The notes below the pieces were generated by a model. It was not told the origin of the DNA. It made no database searches and worked only from the letters and a program-made list of their open reading frames with translations. Positions 1 through 17,279 of a stretch of DNA of 64,000 nt are shown here, piece after piece. Location of the stretch: contig JAKFDL010000023.1 of assembly GCA_036676175.1 (NCBI GenBank), positions 14,807 to 78,806 of the forward strand, read 5' to 3'. The DNA is from Methylotenera sp. (GTDB lineage: Bacteria > Pseudomonadota > Gammaproteobacteria > Burkholderiales > Methylophilaceae). Position numbers and translations under genes: made by a program. The number at the start of each line of letters is the position of its first letter. Position 1 is the first letter of the stretch.

Positions 1-50
1 TTAGTTGCGCTTAAGAATATTTTAATTTGACGCAGGGTGAGATTGCGCAT
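1..50 (-). CDS. cbbR: 5' end of LysR-type Calvin cycle regulator CbbR (runs off the window's left edge)
   Basis: Reverse complement of 1-50 reads ATG CGC AAT CTC ACC CTG CGT CAA... = MRNLTLRQIKIFLSAT, a LysR HTH N-terminus. It has an AGGA RBS and is divergent from cbbL. Not in the ORF track. Confidence 0.85.
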   Translation of the reverse strand, partial: MRNLTLRQIKIFLSAT

Positions 51-62
51 GCCGTTCCTATC

Positions 63-109
63 ATTAAGTAAAACTTAATCAAGCATAAAATAATAATTAC
101 TTTACCTTA
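63..109. promoter_or_regulatory. Putative CbbR operator
   Basis: Perfect inverted repeat ATTAAGT-AAA-ACTTAAT (63-79) containing TAA-N7-TTA (65-77), plus a second TTA-N7-TTA at 97-109. This fits the LysR T-N11-A / CbbR TNA-N7-TNA pattern. Confidence 0.65.
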
Positions 110-172
110 ACATTAAACACTTTTAAAGTGGGTTCGTGTATTAAGTTTTATATATTGAAAAAGTTTCTTTAA

Positions 173-1678
<1,506 letters not shown>

Positions 1679-1689
1679 GAGAAACAATT

Positions 1690-2124
1690 ATGATGACCAA
1701 CCCGAATGGAATTGTTACGCAGGGGCAGTTTTCTTTTTTACCACCTTTAACAGATGTACAAATTACCTCGCAAATTAAATATGCGCTTAGCAGAGGTTGG
1801 GCGCTGTCAGTTGAATATACGGATGACCCGCACCCACGCAACACCTATTGGGAAATGTTTGGCGCACCGATGTTTGATTTAAAAGACCCAGCGGGGATTT
1901 TGATGGAAGTGAATAACTGCCGTAAAACTTTCCCAAATCACTACATTCGCGTGATGGCATTTAGCTCGGTACGTGGCGTAGAAAGTCCGACCATGTCGTA
2001 TATCGTGAATCGCCCTAAAATTGAGCCTGGCTTTGGCCTAGTGCGTCAAGAAACTGAAGGGCGTAATATACGCTATACGATTCATTCTTATGCGACCGAT
2101 AAACCCGAGGGAGAGCGTTATTAG
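1690..2124 (+). CDS. cbbS: RuBisCO small subunit, red-type
   Basis: [29 protein letters not shown] and the red-type C-terminal beta-hairpin extension are present. Start ATG at 1690/1693 follows AGGAG. Confidence 0.96.
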
Positions 2125-2142
2125 TTCGAGCGCTATTAAGGT

Positions 2143-3048
2143 ATGACCGACAAAATCGACATTCAAGCGCTGTTGGAAGAGTCTCATATTAATGAGGTGC
2201 TGGATGCGCTTGATAAAGATTTAGTTGGTTTGGTGCCAGTAAAGCAACGCATTCGTGAAATAGCGGCCTACTTGCTCATTACTAAAGCCAGATTGCAGCT
2301 TGGTATTGAGGCAGCCAAACCTAGCTTACACATGTGTTTTACTGGCAATCCGGGTACTGGCAAAACGACAGTTGCTCTCAAAATGGCGGAGATGTTGCAT
2401 CGATTGGGTTACATTCGGCAGAATCATGTCATTAGCGTCACGCGGGATGATTTGGTAGGGCAGTATATTGGACATACCGCGCCAAAAACCAAAGAGGTGA
2501 TTAAAAAAGCCATGGGTGGAATACTGTTTATTGATGAGGCGTATTATCTCTATAAGCCAGAAAACGAACGCGATTATGGTCAAGAATCTATCGAGATTTT
2601 ATTACAGACCATGGAGAATCACCGTGACGATTTAGTGGTTATTTTGGCAGGATATCAAGACCGCATGGGCACGTTTTTTAAATCCAATCCAGGTTTGTCA
2701 TCACGTATTGCGCATCATATTGATTTTCCTGACTATAATGAAAATGAGCTATTGGAAATTACGAAATTGATGAGTGATGCGATGCATTACAATTTAGACG
2801 CGAATGCCTCAAAAGCAATGCAAGAGTATATTCAACTGCGTAAACAGCAACCACATTTTGCTAATGCACGTTCGATACGCAATGCCTTGGATCGGGCGCG
2901 TTTGCGCCAAGCGAATCGATTATTTAATGATGCTATCCAAAATAAAAAACAGGCAACGGCAGCAGATTTATCGCTAATTACCGAAGCGGATATTCGTGCC
3001 TCACGCGTATTTACCAATCAAAAAATTACAGACAATAAAACAGGGTAG
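2143..3048 (+). CDS. cbbX: CbbX AAA+ red-type RuBisCO activase
   Basis: Walker A GNPGTGKT, Walker [22 protein letters not shown]; lies directly after cbbS. Confidence 0.96.
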
Positions 3049-3063
3049 CCCAAAAAGCGCAAT

Positions 3064-4125
3064 ATGATAAAAGCTCAAATCAGCCTAGAAAATTTTTTGC
3101 ATGCGACTCACACAAGTGAGAGTTTGGCTGCTTTATTGTGCGCCATTGCTAAAGCTTCACAAGCTATTTCTGCACTGACTGAAAATGGCGCCATTGAAAA
3201 TAAAGATGGCAAAAATATTTACGGAAAATTAAACAGTGAAAACGTGCAAGGTGAAACGCAAGCCACCTTAGATGTGATTTGCGATGAGATATTTACTAGC
3301 CGCCTGGCTGCTACAGGTTTGGTGGCTGGCATGGTGTCTGAAGAAGTTGATTTGCCGATTACGGTTAAAAACAAGACCAACAAGGCCGAATTTTTAGTGT
3401 TTTTTGACCCCTTAGATGGTTCATCCAATGTCGATGTGAATGTGTCGATTGGTTCGATATTCTCGATATTTAAAGCGCCGAATAAAACGAGTTTATCTGA
3501 AGCTGATTACCTGATTGCGGGCAAACAACAGGTGGCTGCTGGCTATGCTATCTATGGCCCGTGCACGATGTTGGTTATCACCACTGGTCATGGCACTCAT
3601 GGCTTTACGCTTAATCGTGCCAGCAAACAATTTTTACTGACGCATCCCGATATGCAGGTGCCAGCAGACACCAAAGAATACGCTATCAATTCCAGCAACC
3701 AGCGCTTTTGGGAGTCGCCAATCAAGCGCTATATTACCGAGTGTAAATCTGGCGCGGCTGGGCGGAGAGAGAAGGATTTTAATATGCGCTGGATAGGCAG
3801 CATGGTGGCTGATATTCACCGTATTTTAACCAGAGGCGGTATTTATCTTTACCCGAAAGACAACAAAGATAGCACCAAGCCTGGTCGTTTGCGTTTGATG
3901 TATGAAGCTAACCCAATGGCCATGTTGGTAGAGCAAGCGGGAGGAGCTGCTTCAACTGGTAGGATGCGGATGCTAGATGTACCACCAGAACATATACACC
4001 AGCGCATTCCAATTATCATTGGCTCTAAAAATGAGGTGGAACATATTGAGCGCTACCATGCCGCTTTTGATAAAGGTACAGACGAGCCATTCCCGCTGTT
4101 TAATGAGCGTACTTTTTACAGATAA
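3064..4125 (+). CDS. fbp: Class I fructose-1,6-bisphosphatase (likely FBPase/SBPase)
   Basis: FDPLDGSSN, RWIGSMVADIHR and LRLMYEANP motifs. Confidence 0.95.
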   Translation: MIKAQISLENFLHATHTSESLAALLCAIAKASQAISALTENGAIENKDGKNIYGKLNSENVQGETQATLDVICDEIFTSRLAATGLVAGMVSEEVDLPITVKNKTNKAEFLVFFDPLDGSSNVDVNVSIGSIFSIFKAPNKTSLSEADYLIAGKQQVAAGYAIYGPCTMLVITTGHGTHGFTLNRASKQFLLTHPDMQVPADTKEYAINSSNQRFWESPIKRYITECKSGAAGRREKDFNMRWIGSMVADIHRILTRGGIYLYPKDNKDSTKPGRLRLMYEANPMAMLVEQAGGAASTGRMRMLDVPPEHIHQRIPIIIGSKNEVEHIERYHAAFDKGTDEPFPLFNERTFYR

Positions 4126-4157
4126 ATATACTTAAGAATAGTTACTCGAGGATAGTG

Positions 4158-5027
4158 ATGTCTAAAAAATACCCCGTTATTGCAATCACAGGCTCATCAG
4201 GCGCTGGCACTAGCTCAGTGATGGAGAGCTTTGAATATATTTTTAGACGTGAAAATATTAGCGCACAAGTGATCGAAGGTGATTCGATGCACCGTTATGA
4301 GCGTAAAGAAATGGATGAACTGCTGGAAAAACATCACAAAATTCCTGGCAATTATTTTAGTCACTTTAGCCCAGAAGCCAATGAGTTAGCTCAGTTGGAG
4401 AATACCTTTAGCACTTTTGGTGAAACAGGGCGATGTAAAGTACGTAAATATATTCACAGTGATGTCGAAGGTGCACCTTACAAACAAAAAGCCGGCACGC
4501 TGACCCCTTGGCGCGATAGCGCGGAGGATGCCGATGTGCTGTTTTATGAAGGTCTGCATGGCGGTTACGTAGGCGATGAAGCGAATGTGGCGCAGCATGT
4601 AGATTTGCTGGTAGGTGTGGTGCCGATTATTAACCTTGAGTGGATACAGAAAATGCATCGTGATCAAAAGGTGCGTGGCTATTCACCTGAGGCGGTGGTG
4701 GATACGATTTTGCGGCGCATGCCAGATTATATACATCACATCTGCCCGCAATTTTCGCGTACCCACGTTAATTTTCAGCGCGTGCCGACAGTCGATACCT
4801 CTAACCCTTTTATTGCCAAGCACATTCCCAGTGCTGATGAGAGTATGGTGGTGATTCGTTTTGCAGAGCCTAAAGGTATTGATTTCCCTTATTTGCTTTC
4901 GATGTTGCATGGCTCGATGATGACGCGACCAAATACGCTGGTGGTGCCTGGCGGCAAAATGGGCTTGGCGATGCAGCTGATTTTTACGCCGATGATTTTG
5001 CGCTTAATGCAATTACGAGATAGATAG
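4158..5027 (+). CDS. prk: Phosphoribulokinase
   Basis: MSKKYPVIAITGSSGAGT P-loop, FYEGLHG, RRMPDY and QRVPTVDTSNPF; ATG at 4158 after GAGGA. Confidence 0.97.
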   Translation: MSKKYPVIAITGSSGAGTSSVMESFEYIFRRENISAQVIEGDSMHRYERKEMDELLEKHHKIPGNYFSHFSPEANELAQLENTFSTFGETGRCKVRKYIHSDVEGAPYKQKAGTLTPWRDSAEDADVLFYEGLHGGYVGDEANVAQHVDLLVGVVPIINLEWIQKMHRDQKVRGYSPEAVVDTILRRMPDYIHHICPQFSRTHVNFQRVPTVDTSNPFIAKHIPSADESMVVIRFAEPKGIDFPYLLSMLHGSMMTRPNTLVVPGGKMGLAMQLIFTPMILRLMQLRDR

Positions 5028-5052
5028 CAGACTGCTGTCTGAACGCATTAAT

Positions 5053-5709
5053 ATGGCATTGGTCATGTATGACTTAGATGGTACTTTAATAGACACAGCG
5101 GGTGAAATTGCCTTGGCTGTAAACGCGACATTAAGGCAATACAAATTTAAAACGGTGACTGAGGATCAAGTAAAAGCATGGATAGGCCATGGCACTGTTT
5201 GGTTAATGCAGCAAGCATGGCCTGATAAGCGCGATGTTGAGTCGCATGACACATGGAACACAGTGATGGAAAACTTTATGCAGCACTATAAGTATGTGGT
5301 CGGTACAGCTAGCAAGCCATATCCTGCCGCATTAGAAACGTTGACTAAGCTAAAAGAGCAAGGGATTAAACAAGCCATTGTGACCAATAAAGAAGAACCT
5401 TATACCAGTAAAATATTGGCGCAACATAACATGAAAGGCTTATTTGATTTGCGCATCTCTGGCAATTCTTTACCTTACAAAAAACCTGATGCAGCGGTGA
5501 TTGAATACTGTTTAGAAGCATTAGGTGAAACTAAGGAAAACAGCCTATTTGTAGGCGATTCTGAAATCGATATCACGACCGCAAAAAACGCCGGGGTGAC
5601 TTGTTGGGTAGTGCCCTACGGTTACAACGCAGGGCGTGACATTGCAAAAGCGAACCCCGATAAACTAATTGATAACATTAGCAAAGTTCCTGATTTTTTT
5701 AGTCTTTAA
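5053..5709 (+). CDS. cbbZ: Phosphoglycolate phosphatase (HAD)
   Basis: YDLDGTLID motif I, VTNK, KKPD and VGDSEID; position in the cbb cluster. Confidence 0.88.
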   Translation: MALVMYDLDGTLIDTAGEIALAVNATLRQYKFKTVTEDQVKAWIGHGTVWLMQQAWPDKRDVESHDTWNTVMENFMQHYKYVVGTASKPYPAALETLTKLKEQGIKQAIVTNKEEPYTSKILAQHNMKGLFDLRISGNSLPYKKPDAAVIEYCLEALGETKENSLFVGDSEIDITTAKNAGVTCWVVPYGYNAGRDIAKANPDKLIDNISKVPDFFSL

Positions 5710-5772
5710 AAATTTTAAAAACTTAAACCTTGATTCAGATTCAAACAAAAATACACTAAAAAAGGGTTATAC

Positions 5773-6837
5773 ATGGCATTAGTTTCATTAAGACAATTGC
5801 TTGATCACGCAGCTGAGCACCAATACGGCCTACCCGCATTTAACGTGAATAATATGGAGCAAATTCATGCCATTATGCAGGCGGCCAATGAAGTAGATAG
5901 CCCGGTGATTTTACAGGCTTCTGCCGGCGCTAGAGGTTATGCCGGTGAACCGTTCTTAAGACACTTGGTGGAAGCAGCCATTGAGCAATACCCCCATATT
6001 CCTTTGTGCATGCACCAAGATCATGGCGCTTCAGCCGCAGTATGCCAGACTGCATTGAGAAGTGGTTTTTCAAGCGTAATGATGGATGGCTCGCTGATGG
6101 ACGATGCCAAAACGCCTTCCACCTTTGATTACAACGTGCAGGTGACGCGCCAAGTGGTAGAAGCTGCACATGCTGTGGGCGTATCTGTTGAAGGTGAGCT
6201 AGGTGTACTTGGCTCACTAGAAACTGGACAAGCAGGAGAGGAGGATGGTGGTGGTGCAGAAGGTGTTTTGAGTGAATCACAACTGCTTACCGACCCTGAT
6301 GAGGCTGCTGCATTTGTCAAAGCAACGCAGGTGGACGCTTTGGCGATTGCCATAGGTACTAGCCACGGGGCATATAAATTCAGTCGTCCACCCACGGGCG
6401 ATATACTTTCTGTAGACAGAATTAGAGCCATTCATGCGCGCATTCCTAACACGCATTTGGTCATGCATGGTTCATCCAGTGTGGAGCAAGAATGGCTGCA
6501 AATGATTCGTGAATACGGCGGCCAAATAAAAGAGACTTACGGCGTACCCGTTTCTGAAATTGTGGAGGGTATTAAAAATGGCGTGCGCAAAATCAACATT
6601 GACACGGATATTCGCTTAGCCATGACTGCCACCATCCGCAAAGAAATGGCGCATCACCCCGCAGAATTTGACCCGCGCGCTTTTTTAAAGGCGGCCACGA
6701 TTGCCGCGAGAAGTGTTTGTAAAAGCCGTTTTGAAGCATTTGGCAGTGCGGGCCAAGCCTCTAAAATTAAGGTGATTTCTTTAGATAATATGGCGGCGCG
6801 CTACGCAAAAGGCGAGTATGCAGCAATCATCAAATAG
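5773..6837 (+). CDS. fba: Class II fructose-bisphosphate aldolase (Calvin subtype)
   Basis: [34 protein letters not shown] and KINIDTD motifs. Confidence 0.96.
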
Positions 6838-6863
6838 GTAAACTTATCTACAATAAGGAAAAC

Positions 6864-7634
6864 ATGAGACGTAAATTAGTAGTCGGTAATTGGAAAATGA
6901 ATGGGCGCATCGCTCAAAACCAGGTTTTTTTGCAACGCTTGAAAATTGGTGTGCAAGATTTAAAGCACGCAGATGTTGTCGTGTGCGTGCCTTACCCCTA
7001 TATTGCACAAGCACAAGCCTTGCTGCAAGACTCTAATGTGGCTTGGGGTGCCCAAAATTTGTGCGCCGATGAGAATGCAGCGCTAACCGGCGCAGTGTCG
7101 GCCTATATGCTGACCGATTATGGCTGCAGCTATGTGATTGTTGGACACTCGGAACGACGTACACAGTTTCACGAAACTGATGACACAGCAGCGACCCGCT
7201 TTAACGCTGCTGAAAAAGCGGGCTTAATCCCGATTTTTTGTATGGGGGAGTCGTCTGAAGAGCGCGAATCGGATTGGACGGAATATGTAGTGGGACGGCA
7301 ATTGGATTCGATTATCCGTCGCTATGGAGCTGAAGTGCTAAGCAAAGCTGTGCTGGCCTACGAGCCTTTGTGGGCGGTTGGTACAGACATTGCGGCGACT
7401 CCAGAGCAAGCCCAAGAAGTCCATGCATTTATTCGTAATCGTGTGGCTAAGTGTGACGCTAAGGTCGCTAGAAATGTACAGATATTGTATGGTGGTAGCT
7501 TAAAACCAAGCAATGCTGAAGCGCTATTTTCCATGCCAGATATTGATGGTGGTTTGGTTGGGCGTAGCTCGCTTGATGTAAATAGCTTTATAGCCATTTG
7601 CCATGCAGCAAATCAAGAGTGTGTAGCGGTATGA
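6864..7634 (+). CDS. tpiA: Triosephosphate isomerase
   Basis: GNWKM, GHSERR, AYEPLWAVGT and YGGS motifs. Confidence 0.93.
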   Translation: MRRKLVVGNWKMNGRIAQNQVFLQRLKIGVQDLKHADVVVCVPYPYIAQAQALLQDSNVAWGAQNLCADENAALTGAVSAYMLTDYGCSYVIVGHSERRTQFHETDDTAATRFNAAEKAGLIPIFCMGESSEERESDWTEYVVGRQLDSIIRRYGAEVLSKAVLAYEPLWAVGTDIAATPEQAQEVHAFIRNRVAKCDAKVARNVQILYGGSLKPSNAEALFSMPDIDGGLVGRSSLDVNSFIAICHAANQECVAV

Positions 7635-7644
7635 AGATAATAAA

Positions 7645-8790
7645 ATGAAAACTCACTCACTCGTCGTTGGTGTTCCTTTCGAAATTAAGAGTGACGAGCA
7701 GCGCGTGGCTGCAACGCCTGAGACCGTAAAAAAAATGCTCACTTTAGGTTGTAAAGTGCTCGTACAAAGGGGTGCGGGTGAGCGCGCCAGCATTACTGAT
7801 ACTGCATATGAGGCAGTGGGCGCAGAGATTGTTTCCGCAAAAGAGGTGTTTAAAGCCGATTTAATTCTTAAGGTACGTGCACCAGAATCAAACGAAATCA
7901 AAGCCATGAAATCGGGAACTGTATTAATCGGCTTGCTGGAGCCCTTTAATCTGCCCCAATTAAATGCCATCGCTGCACAGGGCATTACTGCATTTTCACT
8001 GGAAGCACTCCCCAGAAACTCCAGGGCACAAAGCATGGATGTGCTGTCTTCGCAGGCGAATGTGGCGGGCTACAAAGCAGTGTTACTGGCCAGCCATTTT
8101 TACCAACGTTTTATGCCGATGCTGATGACAGCTGCAGGCACAGTGAAGGCTGCGCGGGTATTGGTGTTGGGGGCAGGGGTTGCCGGATTACAAGCGATTG
8201 CTACAGCTAGAAGACTAGGCGCCGTGGTAGAAGCCTCCGATGTGCGTCCGGCAGTGAAAGAGCAGATTGAATCACTCGGTGCAAAGTTTTTAGAGGTGCC
8301 TTACGAAACAGCAGAGGAGGAAGAAATTGCTGCTGGTGTTGGTGGCTATGCGCGCCCAATGCCAAGGGAGTGGATGATGCGACAAGCAACACTTGTTGCC
8401 CAACGCGCTGCCGAGGCGGATATTGTGATTACTTCTGCACTGATTCCTGGTCGTGAGCCACCGATTTTACTGCATGCGGAAACCGTAGAAAAAATTAGGC
8501 ATGGCGCAGTTGTCATCGACATGGCAGCTGGCCTCGGTAAAAATGGCTGTGGCAATTGCCCGCTCACAGAGGCGAATCAAGTGGTGGTGAAACATGGCGT
8601 TACCATCGTGGGTTATACCAATTTACCTAGCTTGGTTGCAGCAGATGCCTCCGCTTTTTATGCCCGCAATATTTTAGAGTTTTTGAAGTTATTAATATCA
8701 GAGGAGAAATTGAATCTCCCTGCGGATGACGAATTAGTAATGGCGAGTTTGATGTGCAAAGATGGTCAATTAATTAAAAAAAGTGACTGA
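7645..8790 (+). CDS. pntAa: Proton-translocating NAD(P) transhydrogenase alpha-1 (domain I)
   Basis: [17 protein letters not shown] and the Rossmann motif LGAGVAG. Confidence 0.95.
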
Positions 8791-8810
8791 AAAGAAATAG
8801 GGAAGCGCTT

Positions 8811-9161
8811 ATGACTGAATTACTCACCATGCAGAACATTACTATTTTCGTGCTGGCCATATTTGTGGGTTATCACGTGGTTTGGACGGTGACACCAGCC
8901 TTGCATACCCCACTGATGTCAGTCACTAACGCCATTTCGGGCATTGTGATTGTGGGCGCCATGCTCCAAACGGTAAGTATAGATGGTGAAACTTTAAATT
9001 TAACCAGTATTTTGGGAGCGATTGCAGTATTTTTAACTTCAATTAATATCTTTGGTGGCTTTCTAGTCACCCGACGCATGTTGGAAATGTTCAAAAAGAA
9101 AGAGGCCAAGGTATCAGAAAACAAGGTTTCAGAGTCGAGAGCAGTGGAGTCAAATAAATGA
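8811..9161 (+). CDS. pntAb: Transhydrogenase alpha-2 membrane subunit
   Basis: [18 protein letters not shown] and [16 protein letters not shown]. Confidence 0.95.
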
Positions 9162-10531
9162 ATGTGATTAATCCCAATTTCATCTCGGCCGCTTATTTAA
9201 TCTCTGCGGTATTGTTTATTTTCTCACTCAAGGGGTTGGCTTCTCCCACCAGTGCGCGTTTGGGGAATACATTGGGCATGGTGGGGATGGCAATCGCAGT
9301 CACCACCACTTTCTTCGTTGGTCATCATCTTATATTCTCACTCATTGCTGGTGCGATTGTTTTAGGTGCAGTTGTAGGTACTTTGGCTGCAAAGCGAGTG
9401 CAGATGACCAAAATGCCAGAGCTGGTCGCTCTGATGCACTCGTTTGTGGGCTTGTCAGCAGTATTGATTGCTATTGCTGCTGTGTACAACACGGCAGAGA
9501 CACATACATCGGTGCAGCGCATTGAGTTGTTTATCGGTGCTTTTATCGGCGCAATCACTTTTACCGCTTCTGTGGTCGCTTTTGGTAAGCTATCTGGGAA
9601 ATTTGGTGCAAAACCAGTGAGTTTTAAAGGCCAGCATTTGTTAAATCTAGTGCTGGCTTTACTCATGTTGGGTTTTGGTATTTTGTATTATCTGCAAAGC
9701 AGTCAGCTGGCTTTTCTAGTGATGTGCAGCTTGGCACTCATTTTAGGAATGACGCTCATCATACCTATCGGTGGGGCTGATATGCCAGTGGTGGTCTCCA
9801 TGCTGAATAGTTATTCTGGTTGGGCGGCGGCCGGCATTGGCTTTACCTTGAACAATCCTGTGCTCATTATTGCCGGGGCTTGTGTGGGCTCGTCTGGTGC
9901 GATTCTGTCTTATATTATGTGTAAGGCCATGAATCGCTCCATCATTGCCGTTATGCTGGGTGGGTTTGGCGCTGAAACCAGTGTAGATGCAGCGGCAGGT
10001 GAACAAAAAGCAGTGAAATCAGGCTCCGCAGAAGACGTGGCATTTTTAATGGGCAATGCCGATACTGTGATTATTGTGCCAGGTTACGGTTTGGCTGTTT
10101 CACGTGCGCAACATGCGCTACAAGAACTCACCACTAAATTAATCGCCAAAGGCGTCAATGTAAAATACGCCATTCACCCAGTCGCAGGCCGTATGCCTGG
10201 GCATATGAATGTTCTTCTAGCGGAGGCAGATGTGCCTTACGAGCAAGTGGTGGAGATGGAGGACGTGAATAATGAATTTGGGCAAACTGACGTCGTTTTT
10301 GTGATTGGTGCCAATGATGTAGTGAACCCCGCCGCTAAAAAGCCCGGCAGTGCTATCTACGGCATGCCGATTCTAGAGGCTTACAAAGCCAAAACCATCA
10401 TTGTCAATAAACGCACCATGGCGGCTGGCTATGCAGGTTTGGATAATGAGCTATTCTATTTAGATAAAACCATGATGGTGTTTGGCGATGCTAAGCATGT
10501 CGTTGAAAGTCTTGTAAAGGCGATAGACTAG
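9158..10531 (+). CDS. pntB: Transhydrogenase beta subunit
   Basis: [39 protein letters not shown] and GANDVVNP; ATGA overlap with pntAb. Confidence 0.96.
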
Positions 10532-10539
10532 AGATATTT

Positions 10540-11919
10540 TTACAGGCCAGTATTTTCCACATATTTGGCATAGATATGTTTACGGGTTAGTGGTAAAGAT
10601 GATTGACCAATTTCACGTTTGTTGGCCAATATTTGATAGATGCCGATTCTACCTTTTTCAAACTCCAAAGCGCATGCGGCCATATATAAACGCCAAACTC
10701 TGTAGGTAGATTCCGTCACATATCGCAGTGCTTCTTCGTGATGATTCTCTAAACGGGAAACCCACTGCCGCAGTGTTAAGGCGTAATGTGGGCGTAACGA
10801 TTCAACATCAGAGATCTCAAACTTCTCTTTTTCCATAGCGCGTTGAATATTGCTCACAGTATCTAACTGGCCATCAGGAAAAATATAACGGTTAATGAAC
10901 TCTGTTGATAAGGTCTTTTCCCAGCCCTCTACATCATGCGTAATGCCATGATTTAAAAATAACCCAGATGGTTTTAACAAGCGGTGCACCGTTGAGAAAT
11001 ATAAAGGTAAATTTTTTAAACCGACATGTTCAAACATGCCCACACTGACTATCTTGTCATAAATACCAGTACCTTTAATATCGCGGTAATCACATAAACT
11101 AAGCGTGACCTGCTTTTCTAAACCGGCTGCTTTGATACGTGCGGTTGCTAGTTCAAACTGTTGTTGACTCAGTGTGATCCCGTGCGCTTTAACACCAAAA
11201 TGCTGCGCTGCGTAAATAACCAACGCTCCCCAGCCACAGCCTATATCAAGCAATTGTTCACCTGGTTTCAATATTAATTTGCGGCATATATGTTCAAGCT
11301 TAGCCTGTTGCGCCTGTTCCAGCGTGGCATCGGCTTTCTCAAAGTATGCGCATGAATAAATCATGGCACTATCTAGCCATAGTGCATAAAAATCGTTCGA
11401 TACGTCATAATGAAATTGGACTGCATCACGATTTTCTATTTTGCTATGCGCTTTTATCGCACGACTGTAAGTGAGTGAGTCTCTGTAATTTTGGGCATCA
11501 ATACGGGCAGGAAGTTTTAACGCACTGATGATTGCAACGAGCCTGTTGTATAAGGACAGTTTGATAATGTGCAAATGGTCTTTTAAGCTAACGGCAGCAA
11601 AAAAGTCACCTTCAATATCAATGTCACCTCGAAAGTATGCATTGGCCAAGCGAAGGGGATCCCGACCAAACACGATACTGCTCAGAATGTTCGGGTTACG
11701 CCAGATCAAAATGAATGATTGACTCAAGTCTTGAGTAATACCTTTACCCAGCTTTAGGCTAATCCCATTCCATAACCGCATCGTCAGCTTGCCATCAAAG
11801 TTTCTAAACAAGCACTTCAACAATTTCACGGTATCTTCAATTCCCGCATTAGGAATTAACCGCTGCCCTCTACCCTCTGCGGCGAGATCTTGATTATTTT
11901 GATTAATTAAACCATTCAT
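10540..11919 (-). CDS. cfa: Cyclopropane-fatty-acyl-phospholipid synthase family SAM methyltransferase
   Basis: FHYDVSNDFY, YSCAYF, LLDIGCGWG, SVGMFEH and YIFPDG motifs. Confidence 0.88.
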   Translation of the reverse strand: MNGLINQNNQDLAAEGRGQRLIPNAGIEDTVKLLKCLFRNFDGKLTMRLWNGISLKLGKGITQDLSQSFILIWRNPNILSSIVFGRDPLRLANAYFRGDIDIEGDFFAAVSLKDHLHIIKLSLYNRLVAIISALKLPARIDAQNYRDSLTYSRAIKAHSKIENRDAVQFHYDVSNDFYALWLDSAMIYSCAYFEKADATLEQAQQAKLEHICRKLILKPGEQLLDIGCGWGALVIYAAQHFGVKAHGITLSQQQFELATARIKAAGLEKQVTLSLCDYRDIKGTGIYDKIVSVGMFEHVGLKNLPLYFSTVHRLLKPSGLFLNHGITHDVEGWEKTLSTEFINRYIFPDGQLDTVSNIQRAMEKEKFEISDVESLRPHYALTLRQWVSRLENHHEEALRYVTESTYRVWRLYMAACALEFEKGRIGIYQILANKREIGQSSLPLTRKHIYAKYVENTGL

Positions 11920-12001
11920 ATAAATTAAATGTGGCGTGTTTAAAATATCAATTTAAATTTCTTAATTACCCCAATTACAACTTTTATGACTATAAGCATC
12001 C

Positions 12002-12035
12002 AAGATTAAGTATCTAAGATTAAGTATCTAAGATA
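12002..12035. repeat. Tandem 14-bp repeat AAGATTAAGTATCT (two copies plus a partial third)
   Basis: Read directly at 12002-12015, 12016-12029 and partially at 12030-12035. Confidence 0.85.
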
Positions 12036-12118
12036 AATGAATACTTTACTGTGTGCTATCGAACATAAGATAACAACTTTTTGCATCACTTCAAAATGCA
12101 GAAACCAAGCACTAAGTC

Positions 12119-13903
12119 TTATAAGTTAGTTTGTTGACTCTTTTTGAACTCATCCTGCTCAAGCGCTAATAAATCTTTCAGGTCTTGACGTCCTTTTTCG
12201 GCCATACTGCGCACGGCATTCATATCGTGCCTGATAGCCCTCGTTGCTTCAAGCTGCTCCAAGTCATGCTGTTCAAAATGCTTGATAATCTTTGTAGCAG
12301 CGCTAGGTGATTCACCGATAGCCAATAAAGCTTGCTTAGCCGCCACAAGCGATGAGTAAAATGTTTCCCGTATTGGGTCTAGGCCAATATCGAGAAAATC
12401 AAAGGCATCGGTCCGGCTGCGTGCCCTCGTCACAACAGCAAGATTGGGCCAGCGCTGTTTCACTAATTTGCCAATATCTAATGCTGCTACCGGGTCATTA
12501 ACGGAAATGACTAGTAATTTAGCGGTTGCGATGCCAGCTTCTTCTAACAAATCCAATCTGGACGCGTCGCCATAATAGCAACGCCAGCCAAACTTTCGCA
12601 TCAAGTCGACTTGATTAGGGTCATTGTCTATCAGCGTTGCGTTGATTCCCTTGGCCAGTAACACCCGACCAACAATCTGCCCAAAACGACCAAACCCGGC
12701 AATGATGACCGCATGGTTTTCCTCAATCGCATCTTTTGGCCGCTCCCCGCACTGCAGGGTCAAAAAGCGATCGTAAAGTAACAATAAGATGGGCGTAATC
12801 AGCATCGACACTGCAACAATCGCGTTGAGGATATTGTAGGTTTCGCGGGGGATCGTGTTTTGGGTTAAAGCCACGCCAAAGATGACAAAAGCAAATTCAC
12901 CTATTTGCGATAAGGCCACGCCAAATAGTAAGTTATCTCGTAGAGAGTAATTAAATAATCGCCCTAGCCCCATTAAAATAGCCATTTTGGTCATCACGAT
13001 TAATAAAGCGAGACCAAAAATCATCAATGGTGAGTTTGCTAATAACGATAAATCTACTGACATGCCTACGGCAATAAAGAAAAGACCTAGCAGCAAACCT
13101 TTGACGGGTTCAATATCTAATCTAAGCTCATAGCGATATTCCGAGTCAGCCAAAAGAACACCAGCGAGAAACGTACCGAGTGCCATGGATAGACCCACAG
13201 ACTGCATGGCGAGCGAAACGCCAATCACCAATAGCAGCGAAAATGCGACGAAGATTTCTCGAACGCCAGTTTGAGCGACGATGCGCATAATAGGGCGCAA
13301 CAAGATGCGGCTAGCAAAGATAAGCAAGACGATCACGCTGATGGCTTTTAACACTGCCCATACATCAAAACTAGATTCAGCACTATTTGGCGCAATCAGC
13401 GCTAACAACATGAACAGTGGAATGACCGATAAGTCTTGAAAAAGCAGGGTTGCAAATGATGCTTGGCCACCAGGGGTGCTTAACAGTTTTTTTTCTGAGA
13501 GGGATGTCAATCCAATGGCCGTGGACGACATCGCAACGCCCATGCCAATGACGATAGCTATTGGCCAACTAAAATTCATTAAGTGCGCTGCAAATGTCAT
13601 AAGCCCAATAGTGCTAATCACTTGTAATCCGCCTAGCCCAAATAAGGTTTTGCGTAGCTCCCAAACTTTCTGGGATTCAAGCTCTAGCCCGACAAGAAAA
13701 AGCATCAGCACGACACCAAATTCAGCAAAATGCAGCACGTGTTCAGGGTCGGGAATCAACTTTAGGGCATATGGGCCAATGAGTATCCCGGCAAGCAAGT
13801 AGCCGAGTACTGAGCCTAGTCCCAGTCTTTTAAACAGGGGTACTAAAAATATGGCGGATGATAAATAGATTGCAGCTTGAACAAGAAAATCGGATGAACC
13901 CAT
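12119..13903 (-). CDS. CPA2 / KefB-KefC-like potassium efflux antiporter with KTN domain
   Basis: Multi-TM N-terminus (LGSVLGYL, LLFQDL, DIEPVKGLLLGLFF) and KTN domain IAGFGRFGQ. Confidence 0.9.
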   Translation of the reverse strand: MGSSDFLVQAAIYLSSAIFLVPLFKRLGLGSVLGYLLAGILIGPYALKLIPDPEHVLHFAEFGVVLMLFLVGLELESQKVWELRKTLFGLGGLQVISTIGLMTFAAHLMNFSWPIAIVIGMGVAMSSTAIGLTSLSEKKLLSTPGGQASFATLLFQDLSVIPLFMLLALIAPNSAESSFDVWAVLKAISVIVLLIFASRILLRPIMRIVAQTGVREIFVAFSLLLVIGVSLAMQSVGLSMALGTFLAGVLLADSEYRYELRLDIEPVKGLLLGLFFIAVGMSVDLSLLANSPLMIFGLALLIVMTKMAILMGLGRLFNYSLRDNLLFGVALSQIGEFAFVIFGVALTQNTIPRETYNILNAIVAVSMLITPILLLLYDRFLTLQCGERPKDAIEENHAVIIAGFGRFGQIVGRVLLAKGINATLIDNDPNQVDLMRKFGWRCYYGDASRLDLLEEAGIATAKLLVISVNDPVAALDIGKLVKQRWPNLAVVTRARSRTDAFDFLDIGLDPIRETFYSSLVAAKQALLAIGESPSAATKIIKHFEQHDLEQLEATRAIRHDMNAVRSMAEKGRQDLKDLLALEQDEFKKSQQTNL

Positions 13904-13981
13904 ATATGCCTTAGTTACGGTTTTATTAAGTTGTTTTATTAATTTGATACTTGATTATAAATACTTGGCATCATGAATAGC

Positions 13982-14515
13982 TCACTCGCTGGTAAATATG
14001 CCTTGGTCAGCACCAGCAAATAGTTTGATTAAATCAGTCATTTTGAGGGATAGAGCAAACCCCAATACGCCACTACCAATCACTACAGTTTCATAATCAT
14101 GCACACTATTATCGACCAAGACTTTAATGTGCTTGGGCAAAGCGATAGGTGGCACGGCACCGACAACATAGCCCGTAGCTTCTGCTACTTCATCAAACTC
14201 TGCCATGCGGCACTTACGCTCATCTAAATGGCCGCGTAATACGCCCCAATCGGCACGGCCACCACCTGCCACCGCTAGTAAAACAAACTGACCTGAGCCT
14301 GTTTTAAACAGCACACTCCGTACGACAGATTGCGGATTTACACCTTGCTTTAATAGGAGCTCCTCCAGATTCCGAACAGGCTTTTTATCCTCAGTGAGCG
14401 GAATTTCTATCACATCATAAGCAATGCTTTCATGTTGTAATAATTCAGTCACAGGTGAAGTAATAGGTATAGGCATCATTATTGGTGTGGTTAGGTTAAT
14501 TCTTAAGTTATTCAA
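13982..14515 (-). CDS. YbaK/EbsC family aminoacyl-tRNA deacylase (true start probably near 14479)
   Basis: VVRSVLFK, TGYVVGAVPP and VIGSG motifs. Confidence 0.8.
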   Translation of the reverse strand: MNNLRINLTTPIMMPIPITSPVTELLQHESIAYDVIEIPLTEDKKPVRNLEELLLKQGVNPQSVVRSVLFKTGSGQFVLLAVAGGGRADWGVLRGHLDERKCRMAEFDEVAEATGYVVGAVPPIALPKHIKVLVDNSVHDYETVVIGSGVLGFALSLKMTDLIKLFAGADQGIFTSE

Positions 14516-14624
14516 CTGTATATTGCGGTTTTTTTGTCATATTTTGGTTGTTAAGATTAAATTTTGTTGCTCAACAATAGAATGTCATCGCTTTAAATGG
14601 GCTTAGGACTATAATTCTATTCAT

Positions 14625-15980
14625 ATGTTGACAGTCAGCGATCGCATAAAACTGAACTTTAAATGGCACGGCGCAGCTTTCATTACAGCTGTTTTAGTGT
14701 TTATTCTATTTCATTTTTTAATCGAATTACAGAATCAGAAATATAAAGCTGAAGAAGCGTTAAGGTCGTCTATATACGGTAATCTTTTGTGGACTGAAGT
14801 TGACCGAGAGTTAAATTCCCTGTTATTTATTTCAAATGGCCTTGCAAGCTATATCTCCGCCTATCAAGATGAGCTGAAGCCAGAAAAGATCAATTTCATT
14901 CTTAAAGATTTGTGGCTGCGTTCTAAACATGTGCGTAATCTAGGAGTTGCCGTCGGTTATCAATTAACCTACGTTTATCCTGAAGCTGGTAATAAAAAAA
15001 TCATCGGTGTGGATTTCCGAAATATCCCCAAGCAATGGCCAAAAGTTAAACAAGCGATTGATACCCGACAGGGCGTCTTAGACGGCCCAATACAATTGAT
15101 TCAAGGTGGGCAAGGCATTGTGTATCGCTACCCTGTCTTCATTGATGGCGAGTATTGGGGCATCATATCTACCGTGATCGATACCGATCGCTTCCTAAAG
15201 GCGGCATTTAAAAATGCACCTAACCAGCATAAATTTGCGATTCGCACCGCAGACACTAAAAATGTATTTTATGGCGACCCCAAACTGTTCTCAGACAAAG
15301 ATACTTTCAAGCAAACTAGCTTGGTTCCTAATGGAAAGTGGGAGTGGGCAATCAAGAACCATACATCTCACTTTGCAGATCAAATCTTAATCTATCAAAT
15401 AATTAGCGTTTTTATTAGTTTAGTTTCTGGGTTCTTGGCATATTACTCACTGAAAGATCGTTACCGCCTTTCAGAAGATGCCATGCTAGATAGCCTGACT
15501 AACTTGCCAAACCGAAGGTTATTGAACGACCGGATGGAAATTGCATTTCATACTGCGAAGCGTTTTCAAAAAATGATGGCGATTATGGCCGTTGATTTAG
15601 ATTACTTTAAAACAATCAACGATACCTATGGCCATGATTTTGGCGATGAGGTGTTAAGGACAGTCGCTTTATTTATTAAATCTAACTTAAGGGAAACTGA
15701 CACGGTTAGCCGAGTAGGTGGCGATGAGTTTGTCGTAGTTTTAAGAGAGGTTAACTCGATACAGAATATCGTCGCTATCGCTGATAAACTAAAATCGCAC
15801 TTTTCCCAACCAATCGTCATATTGGAAAAAGCGATACCCGTGCATCTCAGTATAGGTATTTCTATTTATAATCCTGATAGGCACATTACTTTAAAGCAAT
15901 TGACTAAAGAAGCCGATATCGCTTTGTACCAATCCAAAGCGAATGGTAGAAATACCTATAGTATTTTTGAAGCATACTAA
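14625..15980 (+). CDS. Membrane diguanylate cyclase with CHASE-like sensor
   Basis: Two TM segments flank a periplasmic domain; DSLTNLPNR, RETD I-site five residues before GGDEF. Confidence 0.9.
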   Translation: MLTVSDRIKLNFKWHGAAFITAVLVFILFHFLIELQNQKYKAEEALRSSIYGNLLWTEVDRELNSLLFISNGLASYISAYQDELKPEKINFILKDLWLRSKHVRNLGVAVGYQLTYVYPEAGNKKIIGVDFRNIPKQWPKVKQAIDTRQGVLDGPIQLIQGGQGIVYRYPVFIDGEYWGIISTVIDTDRFLKAAFKNAPNQHKFAIRTADTKNVFYGDPKLFSDKDTFKQTSLVPNGKWEWAIKNHTSHFADQILIYQIISVFISLVSGFLAYYSLKDRYRLSEDAMLDSLTNLPNRRLLNDRMEIAFHTAKRFQKMMAIMAVDLDYFKTINDTYGHDFGDEVLRTVALFIKSNLRETDTVSRVGGDEFVVVLREVNSIQNIVAIADKLKSHFSQPIVILEKAIPVHLSIGISIYNPDRHITLKQLTKEADIALYQSKANGRNTYSIFEAY

Positions 15981-16270: not shown

Positions 16271-16411
16271 GATTTACCTCATCTGCATTCATTATTTTTT
16301 GACTTGAATCAGGGATATAATAGTTCAATGTTAAGTTAATAAATACCAGTATTTATTAAAGCAATTCAAAGTCATGTATCGTATGCCAACCTAGTCCTGG
16401 AGGTCGCCGTC

Positions 16412-17194
16412 ATGAATACATTATCTTCTGTTAAAGGTATCTTATTCGATTTAGACGGTGTGCTGTATATCGGATCGCAGGCTATTGAAGGCGCTATCGA
16501 AGCTGTGCGCAAAATCCAGGCTAGCCACATACAATGCCGGTTTGTCACCAACACCAGCACCTTGTCATTAACATCGCTGCAGCAGAAAATTAATGCATTA
16601 GGTTTTTCCATCCCAGCTGATCAAATCATCAGCGCACCTCAAGCCACCTACCTGTATTTAAAGCGCCAGCAGAACCCTGTTTGCCGTTTATTGCTGGCGA
16701 AGGATGTAAAGCAGAACTTTGAAGAGTTTGACCAGGTTGGCCAACGGGTGGATTACATCGTGATAGGGGATATTGGTGATACATGGTCTTATCCTCTGCT
16801 AAACCAGGCCTTCAATGACTTAATGCACGGTGCAAAGCTTATCGCTATCCATAAGAACCGCTTCTGGCAAACTGAACACGGATTGCAAATGGATATAGGC
16901 GGCTTTGTTGAGGCCTTGGAATACGCGAGTGGTGTCAAGGCAATGATTATCGGCAAACCTTCCCCAGACTTCTTCCAGATTGCATTAGATGACATGGGGC
17001 TAAAACCAGCAGAGGCGGCAATCATCGGTGATGATATTGATGCGGATGTTGGGGGTGGACAGCAAGTTGGTTTAAAAGGGATTATGGTAAAAACAGGTAA
17101 ATACCGGCAGAGTTATGCTGAGGCATCTGCCATAAAACCCCAATTAACTATCGACTCAATCGCAGATTTGCCCAGGATGCTAGGGGTTGATTGA
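16412..17194 (+). CDS. HAD-IIA hydrolase (LHPP/TIGR01458-like)
   Basis: FDLDGVL, VTNTS, GKPS and IGDDIDADV motifs. Confidence 0.85.
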   Translation: MNTLSSVKGILFDLDGVLYIGSQAIEGAIEAVRKIQASHIQCRFVTNTSTLSLTSLQQKINALGFSIPADQIISAPQATYLYLKRQQNPVCRLLLAKDVKQNFEEFDQVGQRVDYIVIGDIGDTWSYPLLNQAFNDLMHGAKLIAIHKNRFWQTEHGLQMDIGGFVEALEYASGVKAMIIGKPSPDFFQIALDDMGLKPAEAAIIGDDIDADVGGGQQVGLKGIMVKTGKYRQSYAEASAIKPQLTIDSIADLPRMLGVD

Positions 17195-17279
17195 GTGTTT
17201 TGCTTTGAACTCTTCTGTAAATCTTTTGCTAATCATTTGATAGCCCTTTTAAGCATTGTTATGATGCTTAAAAAAATGA

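Follow-up and report, generated by a model that had tools for sequence, protein, structure and literature searches.

Gene content of the cbb-pnt block

The window analysed here, a stretch of 64,000 nucleotides from a Methylotenera sp. genome (assembly GCA_036676175.1, contig JAKFDL010000023.1), carries near its start a Calvin cycle (cbb) operon that runs on into a triose-phosphate isomerase gene and three genes (pnt) for a nicotinamide nucleotide transhydrogenase. The eleven genes have the order cbbL-cbbS-cbbX-fbp-prk-cbbZ-fba-tpiA-pntAa-pntAb-pntB, lie on one strand at positions 173-10531 (+) and cover 10.36 kb from the start of cbbL to the stop of pntB. The genome holding the window is designated G000, other G and L numbers denote the genomes and loci compared with it, and coordinates are those of the window unless a position on the contig (G000:C23) is given. 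Gene identities were determined by NCBIfam profile searches with curated cut-offs and are, for the genes of this block, practically certain. The features are:

173..1678, +, cbbL, form I (red-type) ribulose bisphosphate carboxylase/oxygenase (RuBisCO) large subunit; NF003252, 766 bits
1690..2124, +, cbbS, RuBisCO small subunit, directly downstream of cbbL; the cbbS match of 149 aa in L025 is 97% identical
2143..3048, +, cbbX, red-type RuBisCO activase, which marks the red-type lineage; TIGR02880, 494 bits, cut-off 459
3064..4125, +, fbp, class 1 fructose/sedoheptulose bisphosphatase; sole copy found in the genome
4155..5027, +, prk, phosphoribulokinase (PRK); NF011997, 476 bits, cut-off 362
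5053..5709, +, cbbZ, probable phosphoglycolate phosphatase; NF009695, E 2.9e-61, 207 bits, cut-off 225; TIGR01449, 161 bits, cut-off 180
5773..6837, +, fba, class II (type B) fructose-bisphosphate aldolase; TIGR01521, 622 bits; sole copy in the genome
6864..7634, +, tpiA2, second triose-phosphate isomerase; TIGR00419, 192 bits, cut-off 131; full-length TIM-family match
7645..8790, +, pntAa, transhydrogenase alpha subunit part 1 (domain dI, NAD(H)-binding; alanine dehydrogenase/PNT fold); NF006942, 399 bits, PntA positions 3-366 of 510
8811..9161, +, pntAb, transhydrogenase alpha subunit part 2 (membrane segment of domain dII); NF006942 positions 424-509 of 510
9158..10531, +, pntB, transhydrogenase beta subunit (dII, plus dIII as the domain that binds NADP(H)); PntB positions 4-460 of 460, E 4e-164
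10540..11919, -, cfa, convergent cyclopropane-fatty-acid synthase gene, the downstream boundary and outside the block; absent at the same place in G057
G000:C23:13936-14856, just outside the window, -, cbbR, divergent CbbR-type LysR regulator of 306 aa; best match NF045990, E 3.6e-84, under the equivalog cut-off

The longest open reading frame (ORF) for cbbS begins at 1603 and overlaps cbbL; its likely start is the ATG at 1690, which is preceded by GGAGA. With both of its profiles scoring under their curated cut-offs, the cbbZ assignment is a family-level call. The PntB score of 547 bits falls under the E. coli-type equivalog cut-off of 689, yet the match is full-length. The divergent cbbR and cbbL are separated by 122 nt, and pntB ends 8 nt from the convergent cfa. 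The original prediction, made from the sequence alone, described tpiA and a complete pntAa-pntAb-pntB set appended to a cbb operon, and both the ORF coordinates and the NCBIfam profiles agree with this description. The spacing that it gave is matched exactly by the ORFs, with gaps of 26 nt between fba and tpiA2, 10 nt between tpiA2 and pntAa and 20 nt between pntAa and pntAb, and a 4-nt overlap of pntAb and pntB.

Red-type cbb operons (form IC/ID, with cbbX) are ordered cbbLSXYEFPTZGKA in Cupriavidus necator and cbbFPAL SXYZ in Rhodobacter sphaeroides. The operon in the window resembles them in its divergent cbbR, its cbbL-cbbS-cbbX series and the presence on one strand of fbp, prk, a phosphoglycolate phosphatase gene and a class II aldolase gene. 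Unlike them, it has no tkt, gap, pgk or rpe and ends in tpiA and pntAaAbB. Transhydrogenases are known in a two-gene form, PntAB of E. coli, and in a three-gene form, PntAA/PntAB/PntB of Rhodospirillum rubrum. The pnt genes of the window are of the latter kind, with dI, dII and dIII spread over three ORFs, an overlap of pntAb and pntB, and near full-length profile matches.

A scan of the region found neither promoter-like nor terminator-like sites in the four gaps from fba to pntB, in line with the earlier statement that no terminator was seen there. Over the region as a whole, promoter-like sites were fewer than in shuffles (12 versus 24) and terminator-like sites about equal in number (17 versus 13.6). 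No Rfam element matched positions 1-12500 at E ≤ 0.1. A terminator after pntB was not indicated, the fold of 10470-10620 being no better than that of shuffles (z = -0.32). As far as the sequence can tell, the eleven genes from cbbL to pntB are probably co-transcribed.

Distribution and descent of the tpiA2-pnt junction

The junction between tpiA2 and pnt is kept in seven loci belonging to at least four genera. The tpiA2-pntAa gap is 10-31 nt where measurable, namely in G000, G057, S06.Bin152, SF2_5, G014 and G003. In G018 the two genes directly abut and their longest ORFs overlap, so that a gap length is not measurable. The arrangements found among Methylophilaceae are:

G000, G057 and S06.Bin152: full form, cbbLSX-fbp-prk-cbbZ-fba-tpiA2-pnt
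G014, another genus: full form without cbbZ
Methylotenera sp. SF2_5 (L026): cbbLSX-prk-tpiA2-pnt, with no fbp, cbbZ or fba
G018 and G003, two further genera: tcdA-fbp-fba-tpiA2-pnt, in genomes without RuBisCO or prk
OrH-2 and genus g25: complete cbb operon with tpiA last and without pnt
Several genera: cbbR-cbbLSX only
1.3-Mb pelagic genomes: stand-alone pnt

The junction has thus outlived the loss of fbp, cbbZ and fba in one lineage and that of RuBisCO and prk in two others. SF2_5 is a trimmed variant with the same tpiA2-pnt tail, of which the window holds the full form with fbp, cbbZ and fba; its TpiA2 and PntB are 80% and 92% identical to those of G000, and its tpiA2-pntAa gap is 15 nt. In G003, two CbbX ORF fragments lie between tcdA and fbp (L016:4046-4762), the C-terminal piece corresponding to profile positions 182-284 of 284. 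These fragments are the degenerating remains of an earlier cbb operon that has kept its fbp-fba-tpiA2-pnt tail. The loci without RuBisCO are therefore regarded as derived, secondary reductions, since they are also nested in the tree.

In the PntB tree, the sequences of the family form one clade (97/98) except for two or three strays, with the stand-alone pelagic copies at its base. The eight copies linked to operons form a group of their own (81/83), and those of the RuBisCO-less G003 and G018 are nested beside G014. TpiA2 forms a 100/99 clade, restricted to sugar-phosphate operons of Methylophilaceae, which is set apart from the housekeeping TpiA of the family (98/97), lies nearer to the TpiA of other families and has an inner topology that mirrors the PntB tree. 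An import of pnt together with cbb from outside was considered and rejected, because PntB is nested in the Methylophilaceae clade, whereas TpiA2 is foreign-type. From these trees we infer that the linked loci stem from one fusion event. In the history that we propose, a red-type cbb operon ending in fba and the foreign-type tpiA2 would have been present in Methylophilaceae, tpiA2 having arrived with the foreign operon. In one sublineage the family's own pntAaAbB would have been fused once, 10-31 nt behind tpiA2, and the block would then have been inherited or exchanged whole, the RuBisCO-less forms being later reductions. That the block is a co-inherited unit is very probable from gene order and trees together.

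Within the family, pnt is an accessory gene. A pntB was found in 20 of 121 Methylophilaceae genomes and a form I cbbL in 24. Among the eight genomes of the genus of G000, pntB is present only in G000 and G057 and cbbL only in the same two; all six sampled congeners without cbb are also without pnt. A core pnt copy that merely flanks the insertion site of the operon, which the original prediction had named as the outcome that would speak against it, is not what was found: pnt is single-copy in G000 but accessory, cbb-less congeners lack it, and the flanks differ. G000 and G057 are collinear from cbbR to pntB, similarity stops at pntB, and the downstream flanks are different. For the ten genes tested between these two genomes (cbbS not included), dN/dS is 0.004-0.10 at similar dS (0.5-1.3), with values of 0.056 for tpiA2 and 0.018 for pntB. 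The pnt genes and tpiA2 genuinely belong, under selection, to an inherited operon block, an arrangement seen only in one Methylophilaceae sublineage. An empty insertion site was sought in congeners through cfa, but gene order proved too variable to locate it, the cfa orthologues of G152, G088 and G025 each lying among unrelated genes.

The order was sampled to determine how specific this linkage is. A prk gene was present in 198 of 401 genomes, and 80 prk-bearing genomes of other families were searched for pntB, which proved near-universal there (77 of 80). In none of these 77 genomes does pntB come closer to prk than 20 kb: 12 have both on one contig, separated by 30 kb or more, and the others have them on different contigs. 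The earlier statement that a transhydrogenase is not a standard member of cbb operons therefore holds for the order outside the family, where pnt is stand-alone. In Methylophilaceae it is accessory and here fused to a carbon-fixation operon. A full-text literature search for a transhydrogenase in a cbb operon found no report. The nearest approach to such a linkage outside Methylophilaceae was seen in G418 of another family (L117/L118, G418:C12:120000-157000), where a cluster cbbL..cbbX-fbp-prk shares a contig with a partly degraded pnt 30 kb away; the pntB match covers residues 199-457 and contains one in-frame TGA.

The conservation of the junction could also be neutral. In that case pnt would have landed once behind tpiA2 and stayed there by descent, expressed from a weak promoter of its own inside tpiA2 or fba and with no link to cbb. 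The single origin of the linkage and the congruence of the PntB and TpiA2 trees suit this explanation, as do the lack of a family-wide association of cbb with pnt and the location of pnt in flexible genomic islands of the related Methylopumilus (PMC10872708). Promoter-like hexamers are indeed found at 6740-6767, inside fba, and at 6976-7004. However, the junction came through three independent rounds of remodelling and a change of flanks in this family of very fluid gene order, the gap of 10-31 nt between tpiA2 and pntAa leaves no space for a promoter, and promoter-like sites are rarer than in shuffles. The best promoter-like site, that at 6740-6767, was rejected as an internal promoter, because its -10 box is not kept in S06.Bin152, G014, G003 and G018. 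We consider a neutral neighbourhood unlikely.

Host metabolism and the possible role of PntAB in NADPH supply

The G000 assembly is a metagenome-assembled genome (MAG) of 2.08 Mb in 123 contigs, with 44.5% GC and 98.9% completeness, and the nearest matching loci are in Methylophilaceae and Methylotenera MAGs. It encodes two 3-hexulose-6-phosphate synthases (hps) and a pyrroloquinoline quinone (PQQ) methanol/ethanol dehydrogenase; candidates for zwf, gnd, edd and tal were found at motif level only, by regular-expression matches. The hps genes, these candidates for the ribulose monophosphate (RuMP) pathway and the methanol dehydrogenase identify the host as a RuMP methylotroph with an added Calvin cycle operon. 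Such an organism is not new: RuBisCO and PRK have been published for the streamlined lake-water Methylotenera clade LW2, termed facultative autotrophs (Li et al., ISME J 2025, PMC11978286), so the presence of cbb in lake Methylotenera was already known. As far as the main text of that article goes, its host is of the same kind, with RuBisCO and PRK atop RuMP; that text does not contain the word transhydrogenase, and nothing on operon structure was found in it, while in G000 pnt and tpiA2 are part of an inherited block. Crude regular-expression scans, which are weak evidence of absence, detected neither a NiFe hydrogenase nor an SthA-like protein in G000. A flavoprotein beside tkt, considered as a soluble transhydrogenase, proved to be a glutathione reductase.

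The original prediction had called for a search for second copies of tpiA and pnt. A housekeeping tpiA was found, located in nagZ-tpiA-secG and 49% identical to tpiA2, so that the tpiA of the operon is an additional copy. In G000 pntB, pntAa, fbp and the class II fba are each single-copy. The fba and glyceraldehyde-3-phosphate dehydrogenase (GAPDH) genes were surveyed in 30 genomes of the family. Most relatives carry fba in a tkt-gap-pgk-pyk-fba cluster, and G000 is without this housekeeping fba. Its core cluster (G000:C84:29202-36060; L155:7202-14060) reads tkt-gap-pgk-pyk-purC, with no fba after pyk. Wherever a sampled genome has a full cbb operon, its only aldolase gene is the cbb-type fba; the three 1.3-Mb pelagic genomes lack class II fba altogether.

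G000 has a single GAPDH, which is encoded in the tkt-gap-pgk-pyk cluster and is E. coli GapA-like by sequence. It reads VVAINSSYD (AIN-S-SY) where E. coli GapA has AIN-D-LL, and the acidic residue that excludes the 2'-phosphate (Asp32 in B. stearothermophilus, Asp34 in E. coli) has been lost. This Asp binds the adenosine 2'-OH and disfavours NADP (PMC3728087), and E. coli GapA in which it is replaced (D34) works with both NAD and NADP (PMC9145139). GAPDH sequences of this [S/C]SY type form a clade (100/97) comprising G000, G057, G014, G018, G003 and G106, which are all six sampled genomes with the linked pnt type. The type was found in none of the other 24 genomes (Fisher p = 1.7e-6, not corrected for phylogeny). 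In G106 the contig ends just upstream of pntAa, and the tpiA2 junction was confirmed in five of the six. The five genomes with a full cbb operon but without pnt have Asp-type GAPDH only. The G000 enzyme resembles GapB of Bacillus subtilis, a gluconeogenic GAPDH that uses NADP(H), and the engineered GapA D34 mutants (PMC9145139) in that the NADP-excluding Asp is gone. It is unlike GapB in its E. coli GapA-like sequence and in keeping Gly-Pro at 188-189. The [S/C]SY variant would be expected to accept NADPH. The gene, gapS, stands alone in the tkt cluster of G000, G018 and G106. G014 and G003 have the order tkt-gapS-pgk-gapR-pyk (L149:5511-12597 and L150:5446-12724), with one Cys and one Gly at the NAD-discriminating position, and in G057 the second GAPDH copy lies elsewhere.

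The conserved block suggests a built-in NADPH supply for sugar-phosphate synthesis. We propose that the eleven genes would be expressed as a single transcript under the divergent CbbR, alongside the retained RuMP pathway. Whenever the operon is on, PntAB would turn NADH into NADPH at the expense of the proton gradient. This NADPH would feed the conversion of 3-phosphoglycerate into glyceraldehyde-3-phosphate, from which TpiA2 would form dihydroxyacetone phosphate and Fba and Fbp would form hexose and sedoheptulose phosphates. The entry point of the NADPH would be the co-distributed GAPDH with its Asp to Ser/Cys change. PntAB would also cover biosynthetic NADPH demand when carbon enters by RuBisCO rather than by the NAD(P)H-yielding oxidative RuMP branch. 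That branch (G6PDH, 6PGDH), normally the source of NADPH in this family, releases CO2 and would oppose the Calvin cycle, and a dedicated transhydrogenase would therefore be a sensible replacement source of NADPH. In the autotroph Hydrogenophaga pseudoflava, deletion of pntAB delays growth under autotrophy only (PMC13725076). On balance we lean towards one CbbR operon whose PntAB supplies NADPH to a reductive triose-phosphate branch; the tie of this supply to GAPDH is put forward tentatively.

The original prediction held that co-transcription with pnt would couple CO2 fixation to the interconversion of NADH and NADPH. The part of this claim that stands is the linkage in a block within one sublineage. 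The part that does not is the specific link to CO2 fixation: tpiA2-pnt persists without RuBisCO and prk, and full cbb operons exist without pnt. Because G003 and G018 lost RuBisCO and prk and kept fbp-fba-tpiA2-pnt, the tie of pnt appears to be to the reductive sugar-phosphate branch and not to RuBisCO. These same observations raise the question of whether tpiA2-pnt belongs to an fbp-fba module, serving gluconeogenesis or a sedoheptulose-bisphosphatase variant of RuMP, with cbbLSX-prk merely sharing the promoter. CbbR-controlled fbp-fba-tpiA loci without RuBisCO are known (L027, L156, L157), and the status of the cbb-type fba as sole aldolase in all sampled full-cbb genomes points the same way. 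Against such a module, SF2_5 lost fbp and fba and kept cbbLSX-prk-tpiA2-pnt, the RuBisCO-less loci are derived (tree nesting and the cbbX pseudogene), and most fbp-fba-tpiA loci have no pnt. This assignment seems quite improbable to us.

The Calvin cycle is established as a redox sink in purple non-sulfur bacteria. The system might also work in the opposite sense: cyclic RuMP would over-produce NADPH, PntAB would run from NADPH to NADH while pumping protons, and the Calvin cycle would burn the surplus. The coexistence of RuMP and Calvin cycle genes in G000 (two hps, PQQ methanol dehydrogenase and the zwf, gnd, edd and tal candidates) is compatible with this direction. The sequence carries no sign of the direction of PntAB, an NADPH-accepting GAPDH would make the reverse reaction needless, and the proton gradient of respiring cells drives PntAB toward NADPH (PMC8551311). 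We regard an electron sink as very improbable, and the two physiologies of the original prediction, tapping of RuMP-derived NADPH and the Calvin cycle as electron sink, as speculation.

Several observations weigh against the NADPH supply that we favour. Across the 121 genomes there is no association of cbb with pnt (pntB in 4 of 24 cbbL-positive and 16 of 97 cbbL-negative genomes, odds ratio 1.0), and for the same reason the idea that autotrophy needs pnt in Methylophilaceae was discarded. Full cbb operons without any pnt occur in genera g25, g39 and g6 and in strain OrH-2, and the two relatives that keep the tpiA2-pnt tail without RuBisCO count against a link to CO2 fixation. The reverse, electron-sink direction has to be set on this side as well. 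Since fba and fbp are sole copies in G000, the distal genes may need to be expressed outside autotrophy, perhaps from an internal promoter. Regarding GAPDH, an Asp-less enzyme of the Gly type is also present in cbb-less, pnt-less congeners. The NADP-favouring changes at 187-189 are absent from the G000 enzyme, which keeps ...TVDGPS..., with Gly-Pro at 188-189 as in NAD-type GapA; a preference for NADPH is therefore hypothetical. Finally, a single fusion origin means that the conservation of the junction is partly shared ancestry and that the GAPDH correlation is phylogenetically non-independent.

The Calvin cycles of Proteobacteria are as a rule regarded as NADH-linked, with redox supply left in the background. 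In the present case a transhydrogenase lies physically within a carbon-fixation operon, is inherited with it in several genera and accompanies a GAPDH variant that would be expected to accept NADPH. In its strongest version, the favoured reading would have the sublineage run an NADPH-dependent reductive triose-phosphate branch, with a dedicated Asp-less GAPDH, a TpiA2 of its own and a transhydrogenase powered by protons all built firmly into the cbb operon under a single-regulator switch; we think that this version is rather unlikely. If it were true, one regulator would toggle between an NAD(P)H-yielding RuMP mode and an NADPH-consuming Calvin cycle/gluconeogenic mode, a bacterial analogue of the NADPH-linked Calvin cycle of chloroplasts with PntAB in the place of photosystem I. 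If the link is functional, it would illustrate how a methylotroph reliant on NADPH from oxidative RuMP rewires its cofactor supply on CO2, and it would bear on the balance of methanol oxidation and dark CO2 fixation in the abundant lake Methylotenera. The block would then also be a small, naturally occurring set of genes (for RuBisCO, its activase, PRK, FBPase, aldolase, TPI and PntAB) that is of interest to those who engineer CO2 fixation. Should the linkage be no more than historical, the block is an ordinary operon variant.

Neighbouring genes and related loci

Downstream of pntB, positions 10540-15980 of the window hold cfa and genes for a kefC-like K+ efflux protein, a ybaK-like deacylase and a GGDEF protein. 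The gene that follows pntB in G057 is a homologue of G000:C23:31218-32000 (window positions ~16400-17200). A segment of about 6 kb downstream of pntB is thus an indel between these close relatives.

Upstream of the window, beside cbbR (L004:9941-13766, on G000:C23), lie genes for a NasT-like regulator with receiver and ANTAR domains, an NrtA/NMT1-like binding protein, and a nitrate-type ABC permease and ATPase. The NasT-like and NrtA-like genes adjoin the block in S06.Bin152 too, and the NasT-like one does so in G057 as well. The transporter was considered as a bicarbonate pump and rejected; these neighbours make a nitrate uptake cluster the more likely identity.

CbbR-type regulators divergent from fbp-fba-tpiA, with no RuBisCO genes, are found at L156:181-3360 (G018), L157:1-3937 (G003) and L027:6604-10798; in G018 and G003 this locus is present besides the pnt-bearing one. 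Sugar-phosphate operons under CbbR control but lacking carbon fixation thus occur repeatedly in Methylophilaceae. In L005, L006, L024 and other loci, cbbL is 96% identical across genera, but cbbR is only 43%, cbbX 69% and fbp 55% identical. This disparity suggests either an extreme constraint on RuBisCO or recombination that may have swapped cbbLS between operon backbones.

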